Source of the DNA: an uncultured Gammaproteobacteria bacterium
GTDB taxonomy: Bacteria; Patescibacteriota; Patescibacteriia; Patescibacteriales; UBA12465
Assembly (NCBI GenBank): GCA_964355275.1
Contig: CAYHCB010000002.1
Location: 6,639 to 70,638 of the forward strand
Direction: 5' to 3'
DNA: 64,000 nucleotides
Made by a program: the position numbers and the translations under genes. Below, one piece after another: positions 4,172-60,097 of the stretch (within the stretch, counting starts at the first letter, position 1; each line of letters begins with the position of its first letter). A model generated the notes under the pieces. The model did no database searches and had not been told where the DNA came from. It worked only from the letters and a program-made list of their open reading frames with translations.

Positions 4172-4324
4172 AAAATATTTTTTATGCCTTTTTCTTTAAA
4201 AGACGGGTTATTTTTAAGGTTCATAATTTTTTTATTCTAGTATTTTATCAAGTTATTGTCAATATGCTAAAAAACTTAAAAGATATATAATAGAAGTAAT
4301 AATTTATTAATTTTTACATATTTT

Positions 4325-37243: not shown

Positions 37244-37261
37244 GTATCATTTTAACTATAT

Positions 37262-37304
37262 AAAAAGGACTCCTTTGCCAGTTGGCAAATAGGAGTCCTT
37301 TTTA
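37262..37304 (+). terminator. Strong rho-independent terminator after secF
   Basis: aaaaaGGACTCCTTTGCCAgtTGGCAAATAGGAGTCCttttt: long imperfect hairpin followed by a T-tract. Confidence 0.8.
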
Positions 37305-37324
37305 ATTTATGATATAATTTTATT

Positions 37325-53746: not shown

Positions 53747-53817
53747 TCGGGGATCGTCTAATGGTAGGACAGCGGCCTTTGAAGCCGTCGATCTAGGTTC
53801 GAATCCTGGTCCCCGAG
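53747..53817 (+). tRNA. tRNA-Gln (anticodon UUG); its 3' part is the integration target of the downstream element
   Basis: TCGGGGATCGTCTAATGGTAGGACAGCGGCCTTTGAAGCCGTCGATCTAGGTTCGAATCCTGGTCCCCGAG: 7-bp acceptor TCGGGGA/TCCCCGA, CT-TTG-AA anticodon loop, GGTTCGAATCC T-arm. Confidence 0.9.
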
Positions 53818-53822
53818 CATAA
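53802..53822 (+). repeat. attL: 21-bp direct repeat (T-loop to 3' end of tRNA-Gln plus 5 nt)
   Basis: aatcctggtccccgagcataa is identical to 60047-60067. Confidence 0.9.
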
Positions 53823-53906: not shown

Positions 53907-54758
53907 TTAAATAGTTTTTGACACCAACGGCACATTACCTTGCGCTATAGGAGGCTTTGCCTGTACTAATGTTTTATTTTGAATCAATGGTGTTTTTGGA
54001 ACAAATAAATAATCATTAGATTCAAATATAGCTCTATCTTGAATTACTAGTTTTCTATCTAAATATTTTATTAAATTATCTGCTACAACTTTATGGTCTC
54101 CAACCATTTTTTTGTAATATTCACATCTTGTTATATCATCAAAAGTCCATCCAACAGTTGATTGAAAATTTTCTTTTTTTACAAAATCAACCATTTCATT
54201 TAAATAATTTTTTGCTACTCCCATATTTTCAACCATAAGGGCTCTGAATACCCTTAAATAGTAAAAAATCATATAATCTCTTGGTTCTTCTAATACATTT
54301 TTTTGAAAAGACTTCTTTTTTTCAAGACAACTAATAATCTCATCAAAGTCTTGGATTTGACCTGCTATTAAAAATGCCTCAGCTAAATTAAAAAATACAG
54401 TACTGTTTCTTTTTATATAAAGCGCTTCTTTCCATGAACTTATTGCATTAAAATAACGCATATTTTTTAAATGAGATAAACCTATTTCTTCCAACTTTGA
54501 AAACCTGGATTCAGTGAGTTGTGTCAAAGCAAAAAATGTTGCTATTATACCAAAAATAAGCGCTATACATTGAAAAGCCAGACTTAATGCTGTTAATCTG
54601 TTATCCCACGTAGAAATTTTAGGAATAATTACTAATAAAGCAATTAAGGCTATTACTATTAGTGATGAAGAAGAAAACCAGAATCTAAACGAAAAAGTGG
54701 GATATTTGAAAATTCGTTCAAAAAGACTTTTTTTTCTTTTTTTATATTCTATTCTCAT
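53907..54758 (-). CDS. Element cargo: 2-TM membrane protein with a cytoplasmic TPR-like helical-repeat domain (283 aa)
   Basis: Basic N-terminus and two hydrophobic helices (SLIVIALIALLVIIP; LAFQCIALIFGIIATFFAL), then helical repeats (YFNAISSWKEALYIKRNSTVFFNLAEAFLIAGQ...). Starts 19 nt downstream of the NTPase gene on the same strand. Confidence 0.5.
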   Translation of the reverse strand: MRIEYKKRKKSLFERIFKYPTFSFRFWFSSSSLIVIALIALLVIIPKISTWDNRLTALSLAFQCIALIFGIIATFFALTQLTESRFSKLEEIGLSHLKNMRYFNAISSWKEALYIKRNSTVFFNLAEAFLIAGQIQDFDEIISCLEKKKSFQKNVLEEPRDYMIFYYLRVFRALMVENMGVAKNYLNEMVDFVKKENFQSTVGWTFDDITRCEYYKKMVGDHKVVADNLIKYLDRKLVIQDRAIFESNDYLFVPKTPLIQNKTLVQAKPPIAQGNVPLVSKTI

Positions 54759-54777: not shown

Positions 54778-55998
54778 TTATCTTTTTAAACGAACATAAT
54801 TATCAAATAATATAGCCGTTCTAAAAAGCTGAGAATGAAGACATAGCTTTTTATCCTCATCACTTTTTATAGCTCCCGTCTTTAATAATTTTGGAATATA
54901 TTGGTATGTGTTTTTGCCTATTTTTGTGTTCAAGTCCTTCTTTGATACTGGTCCACTTGCTTGAGCTAATTCTAGTAAAATTTTATCACCCACCGTTAGT
55001 GGTTTTCCAAAAGAATACATTGCAGAAAATTCTTTTGACTTTAAACTTAATACAGCATCAAGCGTGGCATCATCCCAATCGGCTTGGTCTACATTTCCAT
55101 CATTATCAGAATTAATTAAGTGATGTCCAATTATTTGTATAGAATGAGGATAACCTCCTGCAACAGAGATATTTTTATTCATAGCTTCTTCATCCCATTT
55201 TATTCCTGTCATTTCAAACCCCTTTTTTAAAACTTCTTTCGCCTCGTCCTCTGGCATAACACCTAGACTTATCAAATCAAAAGTTCTCCTTGACGAAGAA
55301 TCTTTTGAAAAAAACTTTTCCATATCTTCATTATACCCAACCAGTATAAAAGATATTTTTCCTTTATTATCAACATCTAGCGTGGTTATTATGTTTCTTA
55401 GAATTGATGCAGATGAAGCAATATCAGCTAGATTATTCATTTCATCAATTATAATAAGAATGCCATCTTTATTTTTTTCTGATTTTTTTGGATTTTCTTC
55501 GCTTATAGCGCTTATTAAATTAGAAAGTATGCCAACCGTTTGGTCTTTTATGGTTATCTCTTTTTGTATATTATTTTTTCCAGCCTCAACACCTAAATTA
55601 AAACCATAAGCACCTATTTCAAACTTTCCATTATTAAAAAGCGCACCCAATTTGCCACCTATTTCAGATATCAAGTTTTTATCCATACTGTCTGCAACCT
55701 TATTAACACTTTCCTGCAGAACACTTCCTATTTCTTGCCCCTTTTCAACAGCGTAATAAGAAGTTAATAAATCCAAATTATATAAATCTCCATCATTTAA
55801 AGAAGCTACGGATTTTATTAATTTAACCAACGCCGTTTTTCCTATACCTCTTTCTCCATATATAAAGAAACTCGATGGCATATTTAGTTTTATCGATGCT
55901 AACTTTTTACAAATTTCACCTACTTGGTTTATTCTTCCGGCAAATAAATTTGTTCCAACAACCGAATTAGGATTGAAAGGATTACTTTTTGCAAACAT
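54778..55998 (-). CDS. Element cargo: STAND/ORC-Cdc6-like P-loop NTPase (AAA_16 / archaeal-ATPase-like) with a C-terminal winged-helix-like region (406 aa)
   Basis: FAGRINQVGEI...FFIYGERGIGKTALV (Walker A), ILIIIDEMNNL (Walker B), AGGYPHSIQIIGHHL (GxP-type motif of STAND helical domains), C-terminal SGPVSKKDLNTKIGKNTYQYIPKLLKTGAI (wHTH-like). Confidence 0.6.
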   Translation of the reverse strand: MFAKSNPFNPNSVVGTNLFAGRINQVGEICKKLASIKLNMPSSFFIYGERGIGKTALVKLIKSVASLNDGDLYNLDLLTSYYAVEKGQEIGSVLQESVNKVADSMDKNLISEIGGKLGALFNNGKFEIGAYGFNLGVEAGKNNIQKEITIKDQTVGILSNLISAISEENPKKSEKNKDGILIIIDEMNNLADIASSASILRNIITTLDVDNKGKISFILVGYNEDMEKFFSKDSSSRRTFDLISLGVMPEDEAKEVLKKGFEMTGIKWDEEAMNKNISVAGGYPHSIQIIGHHLINSDNDGNVDQADWDDATLDAVLSLKSKEFSAMYSFGKPLTVGDKILLELAQASGPVSKKDLNTKIGKNTYQYIPKLLKTGAIKSDEDKKLCLHSQLFRTAILFDNYVRLKR

Positions 55999-56132: not shown

Positions 56133-57071
56133 ATGGACAAAAAACTACTGAAAAGAGAGTTAATCGACTACAACCGTCAATTCAAACAAATGATGGGGAC
56201 TTTTGGCAGTTTTGAGATAGTTTATGATTATATAAACTTTATTACATCAGACTTATATCTAGCAGAAAAACTTCTTCCTACTGCCACTATACTTGAAAAA
56301 GAAGCTCAAAATCTAGAAGCTAGTAATATAGACCCAGATAACTTTTCTTTTGACATTTCTTCTCCAGAAGGCGTCAGCCAAATGCCAATTTTTAAAGATT
56401 TATATCTTGCTTGCCAAGAAAACATAAAAAGCAAAAAAGATATAGATTTAATGATTGCCCTCCCTGCTTACATCGCTGTCTTATCTCAAGCGGCTTTTAT
56501 GATAGAAGAGATAAAAGACAATCAAAAACTTGGCAATACTGAAGAAGTTAAAAAAATGATAGAAAATATTAAGATTAAATCTTTTTCGGTAGTTGATACA
56601 CCTATGTTAAATGGCGTTGAGAATAAAAAAAAGACCTATGGTCAGTACCTTGATGTAGCAATGGAGTTAGTAAACAAATTTTTAATTGATGAAATAGACT
56701 CAGAATCTTTACTGGAGAACGAAAAGCCTCAGGCTAATTTATCCTATAACTCAGATAATTGTTTGCTATACATAAATGGTAAAGAAATAAAAATAAAACT
56801 AAAAACAGTTAAACCAGTTGATGCTTTTATTTTAGACGCATTATTTTCCGACATTAATAATCTTGGAGAAGAAATGGATTTAAGTGAAGTTGCTAGTTAT
56901 TTTGATACTGAAGCCTCTTATAACAACTCAAACGATTATCAGCGATACCGACACGCTTGTGATAATTTAAATAAAAAAATAGCAAAGCAAACTGATAATA
57001 AAATAACTGACTTTATAGTGTACACAACCGGCAAGACTGGTTGGTGCAAAATCAATAAAAAATACCTGTAA
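56133..57071 (+). CDS. Element protein with a possible C-terminal OmpR/PhoB-like winged-helix DNA-binding domain (312 aa)
   Basis: The C-terminal about 100 aa (LLYINGKEIKIKLKTVKPVDAFILDALFS...YQRYRHACDNLNKKIAKQTDNKITDFIVYTTGKTGWCKIN) follows the trans_reg_C pattern (target...LT..E...L...; RLRKKl...; tvrG.GY.l). The N-terminal part is unassigned. Confidence 0.4.
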   Translation: MDKKLLKRELIDYNRQFKQMMGTFGSFEIVYDYINFITSDLYLAEKLLPTATILEKEAQNLEASNIDPDNFSFDISSPEGVSQMPIFKDLYLACQENIKSKKDIDLMIALPAYIAVLSQAAFMIEEIKDNQKLGNTEEVKKMIENIKIKSFSVVDTPMLNGVENKKKTYGQYLDVAMELVNKFLIDEIDSESLLENEKPQANLSYNSDNCLLYINGKEIKIKLKTVKPVDAFILDALFSDINNLGEEMDLSEVASYFDTEASYNNSNDYQRYRHACDNLNKKIAKQTDNKITDFIVYTTGKTGWCKINKKYL

Positions 57072-57090: not shown

Positions 57091-57127
57091 AAGAGCCTGC
57101 ACGCAAGATAGTGCAAGGCTCTTTTTG
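57091..57127 (+). terminator. Rho-independent terminator after ORF 56133
   Basis: aAGAGCCTGCACgcaagataGTGCAAGGCTCTtttt: stem of about 11 bp with a one-nt bulge, then a T-tract. Confidence 0.65.
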
Positions 57128-57139
57128 TATACTTTGGTC

Positions 57140-57283
57140 ATGATTCAATTTAGTCAAAACTTACTAGATGATGCCAAAGATTATTTTAGCTCATTATATG
57201 GTCGAGAAATAAGCAATGAAGAAGCTGAATCTTTTTTAATGTCGTTATTAAATTTCTACAATTCCCTTTCATCGGAGAATTAA
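57140..57283 (+). CDS. Possible small element ORF (47 aa)
   Basis: Hand-translated MIQFSQNLLDDAKDYFSSLYGREISNEEAESFLMSLLNFYNSLSSEN*. It fills the gap between the terminator and the GC-rich hairpin. No motif recognised. Confidence 0.25.
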   Translation: MIQFSQNLLDDAKDYFSSLYGREISNEEAESFLMSLLNFYNSLSSEN

Positions 57284-57286
57284 AGG

Positions 57287-57338
57287 CTTTTTTCTTTTTT
57301 GCGCCGTCTCGCGTAGCGAGGCGCGGAAAAGAAAAAGG
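57287..57338. other. GC-cored imperfect hairpin about 50 nt upstream of rep: candidate double-strand origin (nick site) of rolling-circle replication
   Basis: cttttttcttttttGCGCCgtcTCGCgtaGCGAGGCGCggaaaagaaaaagg. GC-rich core stem with a 3-nt bulge, extended by a pyrimidine/purine-tract stem. It is the most GC-rich stretch I noticed by eye in the element. Confidence 0.4.
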
Positions 57339-57390
57339 TTATCCTTGTTAAGAGAACTTCTAATTAGAACTAGAAACTAATAATAAATAT

Positions 57391-58338
57391 ATGAAACAAC
57401 AAGATAATAAATACCTATCCAATCGTAAACTGGTAAAATCTGGCTCATTACTTGAGATATATCAGTTTGGTCGGGATATTCATTTAGAGCGCAGAATCAG
57501 ACACATCAAAACCGAGGAAGAAATTGAAGAGGCCAAGAAATTCCCCAAACCCAAGGCTAGCCAGGAAGAAATATTGAAGTCTTCCGCTCGCCGAGCCAAA
57601 CGAATGATTAAACGGCTGATTATGGCTAACTGCTTTCTATGGTTTAAGGAAAAGGGTAAACCATACTTGCCGATTACTCTGACTTTAACATTCGCCGAGA
57701 ATATTACAGACCTCAAAAAAGCCAATTATGAATTTACTAAATTTATCAGACGGCTCAATTATGAAACTAATGGTATTGAAGGCAAAGACTTAAAACAAAG
57801 TAATTTAAAATATTTAGCGGTCTTTGAACTGCAAAAAAGAGGAGCGATTCATTATCATATGATATTTTTCAATCTGCCTTATATCAAAGATGTTTATCGG
57901 AAAATGTATAAGATATGGGGGCAAGGCCGAATTATGGTTGGCGGAAAAGATAAAAATTTTACAAAGGTCAAAAATCAGGCACAACTGCAAAAGATTATTT
58001 TCTATTTCATTAAATATATTCAAAAATCTGTCTTTGAAAATAACTGCCCTCGGCAAAAGAAATATATCGCCAGTAAAGGACTACTCAAACCGCAAGAAAA
58101 TTCTTTTGTTGAAGTCGTGTCGCTCGTGGAATCAAAACTGCCCTCGGAATCTTTGGTCTATAAATATGACGGCGAAACAGAATATAACCAGAGCGATATT
58201 AATGACACTATCGGCAAGCCAGTAAATTTCATGCGTTGGTTTAATTATCAGCAATATGACCTTTCTAATTTTCCCGAATTAGACGAAAACATCGCCGAGA
58301 TACTAACTGGCCATTCTTTGGACGATATTGATTTTTAA
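57391..58338 (+). CDS. HUH-superfamily rolling-circle replication initiator (Rep)
   Basis: Three canonical motifs in order: motif 1 PITLTLTF, motif 2 GAIHYHMIFF (HUH), motif 3 IIFYFIKYIQK (Y-x3-Y-x2-K, the two-tyrosine arrangement of phiX174 gpA). Confidence 0.8.
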   Translation: MKQQDNKYLSNRKLVKSGSLLEIYQFGRDIHLERRIRHIKTEEEIEEAKKFPKPKASQEEILKSSARRAKRMIKRLIMANCFLWFKEKGKPYLPITLTLTFAENITDLKKANYEFTKFIRRLNYETNGIEGKDLKQSNLKYLAVFELQKRGAIHYHMIFFNLPYIKDVYRKMYKIWGQGRIMVGGKDKNFTKVKNQAQLQKIIFYFIKYIQKSVFENNCPRQKKYIASKGLLKPQENSFVEVVSLVESKLPSESLVYKYDGETEYNQSDINDTIGKPVNFMRWFNYQQYDLSNFPELDENIAEILTGHSLDDIDF

Positions 58339-58362: not shown

Positions 58363-58489
58363 ATTGACCTAACATAATAAACAGACATGCCCAGGGTATT
58401 TTTTTAACAAATACCTTTTGTCGCTCGAAATGGGCAGTTCTGCCAAACGATAAATTAACCTTTGGGCTAGTTTGTTATGTTGGGTCAAT
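58363..58489. other. 127-nt extended imperfect palindrome between rep and the recombinase gene: candidate single-strand origin or structured regulatory RNA
   Basis: Outer arms ATTGACCTAACATAATAAAC (58363-58382) and GTTTGTTATGTTGGGTCAAT (58470-58489) are complementary at 18/20. Inner pairings: GCCCA/TGGGC, GGTATTT/AAATACC, GGCA/TGCC. Confidence 0.4.
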
Positions 58490-58525
58490 CAGGACTGCCC
58501 TTTTTGATTATTAAATAATAATTAT

Positions 58526-60067
58526 ATGAACGACAAAAATGAAGCCACAATTAAATACGCCCTCTACTGCCGAAAGTCTACCGAAGACAGCAGTCGGCAA
58601 ATTCTTTCTTTAGATTCACAAGAGAAAGAAATGCTACAATTAGCCGATTCTTTAAATTTGAGCATTGACTACAAATTTAGAGAAAGTAAATCAGCTAAGA
58701 AACCAGATAACCGTCCGCAATTTTCCGAACTTATCAATTTGATCAAGCGAGGCAAAATTCAGGGCGTTATCTGTTGGAAGATTGACCGCTTATCTCGTAA
58801 TCCGATAGACTCGGCCACTATTCAATGGCTATTGCAACAGAATGAACTCAAAATTATTCAAACAATGGAAAGACAATATCTGCCTGGCGATAATGCTTTG
58901 CTCTTTAATGTAGAAAGCGGAATGGCTAATCAATATATTTTAGACTTATCAAAAAATGTTAAACGAGGGATAAGAGCTAAACTGGAAAAAGGCGGTTGGC
59001 CGAATCTGGCTCCTTTGGGATACTTAAACAAAGACAGTAAAATAATTATTGATAAGGCGAGAGGAAAATATATCGTTAAAATATTTGAGATGTATAAGAC
59101 TGGGAAATATAGCGTTAAAGAAATTGCTGATACTTTGTTTAAAGAGGGCTTTAGAAGTCGGGCGCATAATAAATATCATAAAAGTAAAATTCATAAAATG
59201 CTGTCCGATTCTTTCTACTGCGGAATAATGGAAAAGGACGGAGCTATCTATCAGGGTAATCATGAGCCGTTAATCTCTAAAAAACTATTTGACGAGGTGC
59301 AAGAAATGCTAACTAAAAAATCCCATATCAAAAAACAAAATATTCCTTTCGCTTTTAGAGGTATGTTGAGGTGTGCCAAGTGTGGTTGTCTGCTAACAGC
59401 CACCAAGAAAAAAGGCCGACTAACTTATTACTATTGTACTAACGGCAAGAATGTCTGCGAGGAGCATAAAGCCTATATCAAAGAGGAGAATTTATCGACC
59501 GAATTAAATAATGTTTTTGATAACTTAATCTTTGACGAAAAGGTCGTTAATCTCGTCTATCGGGCTAAACTCAAAGAAAGCGGTAATGTCTTGTCCTACT
59601 TGGAAGAGGCTATTCTCGGTCTTCAAAATAGGCTCAAAACGCTAGATGAACGCAAGAAAGTTCTGATAGACGGCTACTTGGATAAAGTTGTTTTAGAGGG
59701 CGACTATAAGGCCAAGAATCAGATAATAGAAAATGAGATAGTGTTAATTAATAAAGACCTGCAGGAGTTAGAAACTAAAAAATCTAGCCAAGATAATATT
59801 ACTTTGGAACGGATAAGAAATGCGTTTTTAGAGCCTAAAATAATGCAAAAAGAGTTTTTATTGCAAAAACCTGACGAACAGCGAAATACCCTAATTGATG
59901 TACTTTGGAACGCTAGCGTTGCCAACAAAAAAATCGCTAATATTTCTTTTAAAGAGCCATATAATGTCCTCTCTAAAATTGAAAATAAAAGCGATTTTGA
60001 TTCAGTGCGAAGAGGCGGGGATTCGAAGTTTATGCCCGAAGGGGTAAATCCTGGTCCCCGAGCATAA
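58526..60067 (+). CDS. Large serine recombinase (integrase)
   Basis: YALYCRKSTEDSSRQILSLDSQ (catalytic Ser region), ICWKIDRLSRN, recombinase domain, zinc ribbon LRCAKCGCLLTA...YYYCTNGKNVCEEH, C-terminal coiled coil. The last codons and the TAA lie inside the 21-bp attR repeat. Confidence 0.9.
   Translation: MNDKNEATIKYALYCRKSTEDSSRQILSLDSQEKEMLQLADSLNLSIDYKFRESKSAKKPDNRPQFSELINLIKRGKIQGVICWKIDRLSRNPIDSATIQWLLQQNELKIIQTMERQYLPGDNALLFNVESGMANQYILDLSKNVKRGIRAKLEKGGWPNLAPLGYLNKDSKIIIDKARGKYIVKIFEMYKTGKYSVKEIADTLFKEGFRSRAHNKYHKSKIHKMLSDSFYCGIMEKDGAIYQGNHEPLISKKLFDEVQEMLTKKSHIKKQNIPFAFRGMLRCAKCGCLLTATKKKGRLTYYYCTNGKNVCEEHKAYIKEENLSTELNNVFDNLIFDEKVVNLVYRAKLKESGNVLSYLEEAILGLQNRLKTLDERKKVLIDGYLDKVVLEGDYKAKNQIIENEIVLINKDLQELETKKSSQDNITLERIRNAFLEPKIMQKEFLLQKPDEQRNTLIDVLWNASVANKKIANISFKEPYNVLSKIENKSDFDSVRRGGDSKFMPEGVNPGPRA
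60047..60067 (+). repeat. attR: 21-bp direct repeat
   Basis: aatcctggtccccgagcataa is identical to 53802-53822. The preceding about 30 nt show only loose resemblance to the tRNA-Gln 3' half. Confidence 0.9.
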
Positions 60068-60068
60068 T

Positions 60069-60097
60069 TAAAAAATGAGCCGAAATGCTCATTTTTG
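60069..60097 (+). terminator. Rho-independent terminator immediately after attR
   Basis: aaaaaATGAGCcgaaatGCTCATtttt: 6-7-bp stem. It has the same A-tract / hairpin / T-tract-gtta layout as the sites at 53823 and 61468. Confidence 0.7.

Follow-up and report, generated by a model that had tools for sequence, protein, structure and literature searches.

The locus at positions 57286-58338 of a 64,000-nt stretch of DNA (hereafter the window, meaning the whole stretch that was analyzed) raises the question of what kind of mobile element it serves and where replication of that element would begin: a large hairpin is followed by a gene for a rolling-circle replication (RCR) initiator protein, Rep, and then by a gene for a large serine recombinase. 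We consider it probable that the locus is the origin and initiator module of a 6,245-bp element that is integrated in the T-loop/3' end of a tRNA-Gln gene in a Falkowbacteria-type genome of the Patescibacteria (Candidate Phyla Radiation, CPR).

Rep, hairpin, and predicted origin

Rep is encoded at 57391-58338 on the + strand, has a length of 315 aa, and is a two-tyrosine HUH (histidine-hydrophobic-histidine) RCR initiator of the pHT926 / plectrovirus-inovirus family. A preliminary description of this DNA had reported three HUH motifs in order, and we find PITLTLTF, IHYHMIFF, and YFIKYIQK in this order in the translation, with T98, T100, and F101 of motif I, H154 and H156 of the HUH motif, and the tyrosines Y205 and Y209 invariant in an alignment of 20 relatives that extends down to 31% identity. 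A profile search bears out this assignment: the Pfam model PF23343 (REP_ORF2-G2P), which corresponds to the plectrovirus ORF2 / inovirus G2P initiator domain and has a curated cut-off of 27.8 bits, matches Rep with 61.9 bits (E 7.6e-17, profile positions 3-98 of 99). PHROG 3419 ('rolling circle DNA replication initiation') also matches (E 1.9e-25), and close homologs in public records, from Candidatus Falkowbacteria and other Patescibacteria metagenome-assembled genomes (MAGs), are named 'Rep protein' or 'rolling circle replication-associated protein'. The family is large, with 6,135 clusters (50% identity) at E <=1e-3 and 771 at E <=1e-30. A sub-threshold similarity to RepSA covers motif II (PF20199, 25.2 bits versus a cut-off of 34), and a PDB sequence search with the Rep profile returned nothing meaningful.

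When a Rep profile is compared with phiX174 gpA, motifs I-III are aligned with their counterparts (TLTL, LHFHAVHF, FYVAKYVNK), and FYFIKYIQK lies over FYVAKYVNK; the two tyrosines are therefore spaced as in gpA, as had been proposed, with Y-x-x-x-Y aligned to YVAKYVNK. The two invariant tyrosines fit alternating cleavage and joining in the style of phiX174. An AlphaFold (AF2) model of Rep has a predicted local distance difference test score (pLDDT) of 79.5 and a predicted template-modeling (TM) score of 0.78, and a Foldseek search with this model retrieved SIRV1 ORF119 (2x3g; probability 1.0, TM 0.66) as well as other HUH domains, namely those of RepB, AAV Rep, and the Reps of circoviruses and geminiviruses, each with E >1e-3. 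In comparison with eight relatives, the ratio of nonsynonymous to synonymous substitution rates (dN/dS) of Rep is 0.03-0.06 at dS 0.6-1.4, and strong purifying selection acts on Rep. Judged from its motifs and profile matches, Rep is a bona fide HUH initiator with predicted site-specific nicking and joining activity. A transposon of the IS91/Helitron type, which would likewise combine two tyrosines and a CTTG site, gave only a Helitron_like_N match with E 0.049, and we dropped this candidate because the position of Rep is fixed inside an element that is bounded by attachment (att) repeats and has its own recombinase.

The hairpin cttttttcttttttGCGCCgtcTCGCgtaGCGAGGCGCggaaaagaaaaagg occupies 57286-57339 (+ strand), and its 3' end lies 51 nt before the Rep ATG, in agreement with the roughly 50 nt given in the preliminary description. 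In the window, its lower stem is a T-tract paired with an A-tract and has a GC segment beside a bulge, which takes up 3 nt on the 5' side; above the bulge comes a GC upper stem of 4 bp that is closed by a loop of GTA. Folded as single-stranded DNA it reaches -18 kcal/mol versus -9.9 +/- 2.3 for 200 shuffles, of which none was as stable for a 66-nt stretch and one for a 56-nt stretch (0/200 and 1/200), and in a scan of the 64 kb with RNA energy parameters it ranks first among 12,789 56-nt + strand windows (-30.4; mean -6.9, standard deviation 3.6). The second most stable 56-nt fold in that scan, at 37251-37306 (-26.9, AAAAAGGACTCCTTTGCCAGTTGGCAAATAGGAGTCCTTTTT), is flanked by an A-run/T-run and resembles a bidirectional terminator. 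Eleven variants of the Rep-associated hairpin among relatives, each folded individually, share one bulged architecture (z -3.5 to -8.3) that comprises a lower stem of 14-20 bp with a T-tract paired with an A-tract and a GC-rich segment beside the bulge, a bulge of 2-4 nt on the 5' arm (in one variant an internal loop with 3 unpaired nt also on the 3' side), and a GC upper stem of 4-6 bp with a loop of 3-5 nt. Several stem positions swap CG/GC/TA/AT and stay paired; because apical indels misalign the MAFFT alignment, these compensatory changes were judged from the individual folds and a structure-indexed table. By this comparison of sequences, the hairpin is a conserved, covarying structure. 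That the bulge is kept on one arm across variants argues that the hairpin would be read in an extruded or single-stranded state.

Two other identities of the hairpin were considered and rejected. An intrinsic terminator for the upstream gene p52 is not indicated, as on both strands a T-run precedes and an A-run follows the stem and a consensus terminator scan made no call; and a match to the Rfam Enterococcus-1 RNA at 57253-57396 (+ strand) reached 25.2 bits versus a gathering threshold of 71.4 with many non-canonical pairs and was judged to be due to chance.

At the 3' base of the hairpin begins a box, GTTATCCTTGTTAAGAGAACTTCTAATTAGAAC, that spans 57338-57370 (+ strand), reads GTTATCCTTGTTAA...TAATTAGAAC, and includes a second sub-box, TTCTAATTAGAA, which is a perfect 12-bp palindrome. 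Relatives with a Rep of >=55% identity, in which synonymous sites of Rep are saturated, keep the box with 0-3 substitutions plus small changes in a short spacer. In relatives with a Rep of 31-45% identity the box is recognizable as GG(G)ACTTGAT(A/T)A, followed by a 6-8-nt spacer and AACACTTAATCAGA; this distant-relative form, ACTTGATA...AACACTTAATCAGA, is near the phiX174 origin, and we consider the window box homologous to the ACTTGAT..CACTTAATCAGA of distant relatives, plasmids, and inovirus-like contigs. The phiX174 record gives the origin as CAACTTG|ATATTAATAACACT (longer: CAACTTG|ATATTAATAACACTATAG) with the viral-strand start annotated at 4306, and the box of one relative, TTACTTGATATATATAACACTTAATCAGAA, equals it at 17/19 positions counted from the third base. 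The pattern GTTANNCTTGWT-N-TAATYAGA has a single match in the window, at 57338-57370, with 0 expected (none in 100 shuffles), and no further copies of the box are present within the element. The shorter pattern CTTGWT-N-TAATYAGA has one + strand match per locus across 67 fetched loci, apart from one locus with a second match on the - strand, and where checked the pattern lies just upstream of Rep.

We infer that the element has its replication origin at 57286-57370, with the hairpin as an integral part. Within this region Rep would most likely nick the + strand at CCTTG|TTAA, between G57347 and T57348, because the box is homologous to the CTTG|AT site that the family shares with phiX174; as the window box reads CTTGTT and not CTTGAT, the exact position is an extrapolation. 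The idea that the hairpin is a double-strand origin thus held in part: it is a conserved, covarying piece of the predicted origin, but its GC core is its variable part (TCGC/GCGA, TCCCCC/GGGGGA, CCGCC/GGCGG, and CACCC/GGGTG among versions), and the likely nick site is the CTTG box at its 3' base, outside the hairpin. In the intergenic regions of filamentous phages, hairpins sit upstream of the nick site as well. Here the hairpin may aid Rep loading or melting as a cruciform and/or serve as a minus-strand origin in the displaced strand. Nucleotide identity to relatives climbs from 0.5-0.7 to 0.85-0.97 at about 57320-57350, and the predicted origin therefore appears to mark a boundary between exchangeable modules.

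The same features could be read as transcriptional control of Rep and the recombinase, with hairpin and box acting as a terminator, an attenuator, or an operator for p312 or p52 (two proteins encoded upstream, see below), and with the nick site elsewhere or Rep in disuse. The location of the hairpin between p52 and Rep would agree with this, the palindromic sub-box is of the kind bound by dimeric regulators, the C-terminal domain of p312 is winged-helix-like, and a second conserved structure precedes the recombinase gene. However, the A-run after the hairpin on both strands and the silent terminator scan do not fit a terminator, the CTTG(A/T)T core is common to phiX174, pHT926, and pGTG5, including replicons that have neither p312 nor p52, Rep is under strong purifying selection, and the box has no other copy in the element. 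We regard a purely transcriptional function as quite unlikely and retain the reading of 57286-57370 as a replication origin.

An element integrated at a tRNA-Gln gene

The element is delimited by exact 21-bp direct repeats, AATCCTGGTCCCCGAGCATAA, with the attL core at 53802-53822 and the attR core at 60047-60067 (both + strand), and contains six open reading frames (ORFs). Its target is a tRNA-Gln(UUG) gene at 53747-53818 (+ strand) identified by ARAGORN (Rfam tRNA, 64.4 bits); attL extends from the T-loop of this tRNA to its 3' end plus TAA, so that the 3' part of the tRNA from the T-loop onward comes from the element, and an apparent original tRNA-Gln terminator was found by consensus scan after attR, at 60071-60096. 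The large serine recombinase (58526-60067, + strand, 513 aa) has its stop codon inside attR. Its Resolvase (8.2e-23), Recombinase (3e-16), and Zn_ribbon_recom (3.4e-7) domains are all above threshold, it matches the integrase family PHROG 95 (6.7e-83), and YCRKST at residues 15-20 holds the presumed catalytic serine. These findings agree with the integration at a tRNA that had been proposed.

Compared with its relatives, the window element has an inverted att layout in which the intact tRNA-Gln lies at the end far from the recombinase, and a degenerate antisense tRNA-Ser-like half-site is still found inside the 3' end of the window recombinase gene (60006-60028, + strand; a remnant recognized from the alignment of recombinase 3' ends, at the position of the att half-site of relatives). 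In both arrangements the repeat begins at the same T-loop position, TTCG|AATCC, which fits a crossover at the AA dinucleotide; the predicted junctions are ...CCCGAAGGGGTAAATCCTGGTCCCCGAGCATAACAAAAAAAACATATCG for attP and ...GGTTCGAATCCTGGTCCCCGAGCATAATTAAAAAATGAGCCG for the empty site.

Two of the six ORFs, both on the - strand next to attL, are cargo genes. The first (53907-54758) encodes a protein of 283 aa with two hydrophobic stretches read as transmembrane segments; it has no Pfam or PHROG match, gave only weak PycTM-like matches in PADLOC, and tblastn finds no similarity to it in relatives with a 92-97% identical Rep. The second (54778-55998, 406 aa) encodes a STAND/ORC-like P-loop ATPase (ATPase_2 1.1e-9, AAA_16, KAP_NTPase; PHROG 6841). 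PADLOC made no confident defense assignment for the cargo. The other two ORFs upstream of Rep are core genes on the + strand. The product of the p312 gene (56133-57071) is helical and variable in its N-terminal part, and its C-terminal ~110 aa form a conserved domain; in the AF2 model (pLDDT 83) this domain has a winged-helix-like bbb-HHH-bb topology, Foldseek returned no significant match and a weak one to RstA's DNA-binding domain (OmpR family, probability 0.51), and p312 is a putative DNA-binding regulator. A terminator-like hairpin found by consensus scan follows at 57098-57115 (+ strand), and then p52 (57125-57283), a small acidic helical protein without a family match in Pfam or PHROGs, for which a role as regulator or as recombination directionality factor is a guess.

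The intergenic region between Rep and the recombinase contains a second structured element at 58363-58507 (+ strand), conserved in relatives, with a single-stranded DNA fold of -27.8 kcal/mol (z -4.9). In it 58426-58443 pairs with 58490-58507 to form a terminator-like stem; a T-run comes next, 20 nt ahead of the ATG of the recombinase gene. Its outer stem covaries (ATTGACCTAACATAA/TTATGTTGGGTCAAT versus GTTGCTTTAATCTAA/TTAGATTAAGGCAAC in relatives), its core TTTGTCGCTCGAAATGGGCAGTTCTGCC is nearly invariant, and its G-T pairs favor the + strand. Its possible functions are to attenuate expression of the recombinase or to serve as a single-strand origin. Among contigs that carry the Rep variant P0030 (L149-L158, from >10 sequencing runs), most end ~145-165 nt past the Rep stop, inside this structure, as expected if each community has several elements with copies of the recombinase module.

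Searches of Pfam, PHROGs, and NCBIfam found no capsid or morphogenesis family for the six element proteins, as had been stated in the preliminary description, and Microviridae major capsid (F/VP1) and scaffold genes are likewise absent among them (Pfam, PHROGs); nor does any of them match a coupling protein or translocase of the FtsK or TcpA type in Pfam or NCBIfam. A different view is that the element derives from a filamentous phage of CPR bacteria, as a satellite or a defective form, with Rep and origin taken from an inovirus or plectrovirus, single-stranded circles made by Rep and packaged by a helper inovirus, and a hairpin that acts as packaging signal and/or minus-strand origin with no part in Rep loading. 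PF23343 indeed takes its name from ORF2 of plectroviruses and G2P of inoviruses, Zot is encoded on the viral contigs closest to the element (Rep 31-33% identical), which share the hairpin-plus-box arrangement upstream of Rep, the bulge on one arm suggests single-stranded reading, and there are reports of inoviruses in CPR hosts and of inoviruses with serine recombinases (PMC6813254). However, Zot/pI is absent: Zot is not among the Pfam matches of the 406-aa ATPase even at E <=1, and the same Pfam search detects it in two viral relatives (L095 and L097). The six ORFs fill the element, the intergenic gaps of 53-187 nt leave no space for even a small coat gene, and a hydrophobic stretch is lacking in p52. 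A helper phage was not identified, autonomous plasmids of 1.5-1.8 kb without a phage link are related just as closely, and IMG/VR holds no close relative, the identity of Rep to any of its viral contigs being <=35%. A satellite is, in our estimate, unlikely.

If instead the element is a replicon of its own, as we propose, the parts described above would act as follows. The large serine recombinase would excise the element as a circle, a step suggested by the att repeats and by a circularly permuted relative (see below). Rep would bind the origin, nick the + strand at CCTTG|TTAA, and become linked to the 5' end via Y205 or Y209, while host polymerase and helicase would extend the 3'-OH around the circle; the second tyrosine would then cleave the regenerated site, and the displaced strand would be sealed, as is done by phiX174 gpA. 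The bulged hairpin immediately 5' of the box would promote loading and melting by Rep as a cruciform, or act as minus-strand origin in the displaced strand. The conserved proteins p312 and p52 would have accessory or regulatory roles, and the other two genes would be exchangeable cargo. The nicking position, replication, excision, and the exact role of the hairpin are all predictions from sequence comparison.

Several observations weigh against this scheme. The window box has CTTGTT in place of the canonical CTTGAT, that is, T for A at +1 after the presumed nick, and the conserved box, with its palindrome TTCTAATTAGAA, could also hold a Rep promoter or operator. The similarity between phiX174 gpA and Rep is weak (hhalign E 0.018, probability 2.6%), and every Foldseek match of the Rep model has E >1e-3. 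A separate single-strand origin is a candidate only, not identified with confidence. The att 21-mer had 0 matches in JGI metagenome contigs, no attP/attB junction was recovered, and none of the close relatives is on a contig with terminal overlap (163 loci tested); by this measure circles were found only among distant viral contigs and for one 1.7-kb Rep-only contig. The Rep variants P0003, P0007, and P0030 were found on linear contigs only, which are often truncated.

Related elements in Patescibacteria

The identical element is present in the samples ERR3856787, ERR3687825, ERR3856788, and ERR3687823 (Logan) and ERZ4201064 (ENA). Scanning one genome for each species gave 80 loci, almost all of them in Patescibacteria. 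A large serine recombinase gene follows Rep on the same strand at 66/72 loci with enough downstream sequence, and an opposite-strand tRNA overlaps the 3' end of the recombinase gene at 34/41 loci (15 Gln, 10 Ser, then Pro, Asn, Asp, and others). Upstream of Rep, the C-terminal ~110-140 aa of p312 are recognizable at 30/66 loci and p52 is conserved, with 41-66% identity, at 21/66. Where both ends are visible, the relatives are bounded by 18-20-bp repeats and have a length of 5.7-10 kb; five are delimited by such repeats, one locus contains a tandem pair, and a single Falkowbacteria MAG contains >=4 copies. Cargo differs among elements whose Rep and recombinase are 92-97% identical. A GmrSD_N/HNH protein and an EcoRI-like methylase are encoded in two relatives (L007 1725-4662 and L149 82-2170), the first of which also encodes a Ymh-family protein. 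This exchange suggests that the elements are small carriers of defense genes.

In one relative (L014 5608-11409) an element of 97% identity is present in circularly permuted form inside a split GNAT-like gene. At the upstream junction the GNAT N-terminus is joined to recombinase residues 57-500; downstream of Rep, residues 1-59 of the recombinase are joined to the GNAT C-terminus, and the junctions share the microhomology GCTAAG. The permutation therefore implies a circular intermediate followed by illegitimate insertion, and it is the sole indirect sign of a circular form.

Other arrangements were also observed. Many homologous Reps of ~250 aa are encoded on 1.3-1.9-kb contigs (L070, L062, L083, L084; P0084-P0120). 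The first of these (1,759 nt) carries a AACTTGATTATAG box and has a 55-nt terminal overlap and is therefore a circle of about 1.7 kb, and similar short contigs occur in Geobacillus and Anoxybacillus isolate assemblies; these small contigs resemble pGTG5 and pHT926. A GC-rich block of ~110 nt lies just inside the left end of four relatives (L021 2507-2620, L024 6960-7050, L026 1644-1760, L051 5459-5570). The blocks of L021 and L024 have at their end a sense-oriented T-arm half, TTCGAATCCCTC, an inverted copy of the adjacent att repeat; those of L026 and L051 look different, and the window element has no such block. Immediately downstream of another related element, on the opposite strand (L159 5611-9783), a second, different large serine recombinase is encoded together with a 317-aa protein and a DUF6119 protein, which looks like another integrative element at a shared site.

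More tentatively, we suggest as one possibility that this phylum-wide family of 5.7-10 kb represents the principal plasmid-like replicons of Patescibacteria, which would alternate between a tRNA-integrated and a rolling-circle circular state and shuttle defense cargo. In the integrated state the large serine recombinase would have cut in the T-loop, with its own gene overlapping the tRNA, and the circular state would replicate from the phiX174-like origin. In a more radical version, the one-sided bulged hairpin would be a packaging signal and the elements would be satellites of CPR filamentous phages. If alternation between tRNA integration and rolling-circle replication is correct, the family would provide a compact replicon of rep plus an origin of ~90 bp and a site-specific integrase with a predictable tRNA target, and both are parts that genetic tools for these organisms, whose manipulation is very difficult, would require. 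The movement of defense-looking cargo (restriction-modification type genes and the STAND-like ATPase pair) between reduced genomes without conjugation would also be explained, and a single origin design would link phiX174 and filamentous phages with tiny plasmids of Bacillota.

Comparison with known systems

CPR/Patescibacteria represent a large share of bacterial diversity, and a 2025 groundwater survey, which states that CPR plasmids 'have been rarely studied', makes no mention of rolling-circle replication or of recombinases (PMC12023590). The literature that we searched holds no description of a CPR-wide family with a core of Rep and large serine recombinase, that is, one with a recombinase gene overlapping its tRNA target, a T-loop crossover, a phiX174-like origin with a bulged hairpin, and swappable defense-looking cargo. 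The earlier suggestion that such a combination has not been described as a class nevertheless does not stand, as streptococcal integrative mobilizable elements (IMEs), actinomycete integrative and conjugative elements (AICEs) of the pSAM2 type, and inovirus prophages with serine recombinases are comparable.

The plasmids pHT926 (Brevibacillus borstelensis, 1,786 bp) and pGTG5 (Geobacillus sp. 1121, 1,540 bp) encode homologs of the window Rep annotated 'Rep protein' and 'Rep5' (34-41% identity, E 1e-20 to 2e-25; for pHT926 41% over 172 aa, E 2e-25), just upstream of which lies a GC-rich hairpin followed by (GTT)AACTTGATTATAG...ATTAGA. Both are taken to replicate by rolling circle, which for pHT926 agrees with its citation in PMC5357655. 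They differ from the window element in being autonomous Rep-only circles of Bacillota, whereas the window element is integrated, has a serine recombinase, two accessory genes, cargo, and a CTTGTT box, and resides in a CPR host. Rep shares with phiX174 gpA the order of motifs I-III and the Y-x-x-x-Y arrangement (YFIKYIQK versus YVAKYVNK), and in relatives such as L048 the box equals the origin of phiX174, which is 30 bp long, at 17/19 positions. Unlike phiX174, however, the window element has no capsid or scaffold genes, and its predicted origin is located upstream of rep after a large hairpin and not within rep. Plectroviruses and inoviruses have a Rep of the same Pfam family, and the nearest viral contigs (IMG/VR, inovirus-like) combine Zot with the same hairpin-box-Rep layout; the window element differs in having neither Zot/pI nor a coat gene. 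Serine recombinases are known from inovirus prophages, and inoviruses have been reported from CPR hosts (PMC6813254).

Streptococcal IMEs resemble the window element in being small and integrated and in combining an HUH Rep-like protein (Rel_PHA00330 and others) and a recombinase with exchangeable cargo. They encode RCR-type Reps together with tyrosine or serine recombinases, and some are located at tRNA genes (PMC5704250, PMC5357655). If the window element were of this type, Rep would be mainly a relaxase, the box would be an oriT from which single-stranded DNA enters a transfer apparatus, and replication would be only concomitant. The streptococcal RCR-type initiators beside integrases, including the PHA00330 class, are interpreted as relaxases, and the pHT926 report is cited among earlier RCR initiators for that class, although this pairing of citation and domain is interpretive (PMC5357655, PMC5704250); the homology of the pHT926 Rep to the window Rep would extend this view to the window element. 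However, the relaxase role of the PHA00330-type class is itself only proposed, most streptococcal IMEs also have a gene for a TcpA coupling protein and depend on conjugative helpers, and those with serine recombinases are said to insert within protein-coding genes. The window element has no TcpA/FtsK-like coupling protein or other transfer gene, its lone ATPase is STAND/ORC-like cargo, its host belongs to the CPR, and the target of its serine recombinase is a tRNA T-loop. There is no evident helper conjugative system, and we know of none in CPR. A mainly conjugative role of Rep is in our judgment distinctly improbable, and an origin of replication is the reading that we prefer.

AICEs of the pSAM2 type integrate at tRNA genes and undergo rolling-circle replication after excision. 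They share with the window element tRNA integration and an RCR Rep, to which the weak, sub-threshold similarity to RepSA may be added, but they have a tyrosine integrase with Xis, FtsK-like transfer by TraSA, and a much larger Rep, and they belong to Actinobacteria. Like IMEs and AICEs, the window element combines an integrase and a Rep/relaxase in a small repeat-bounded element, and every one of its components belongs to a known kind.

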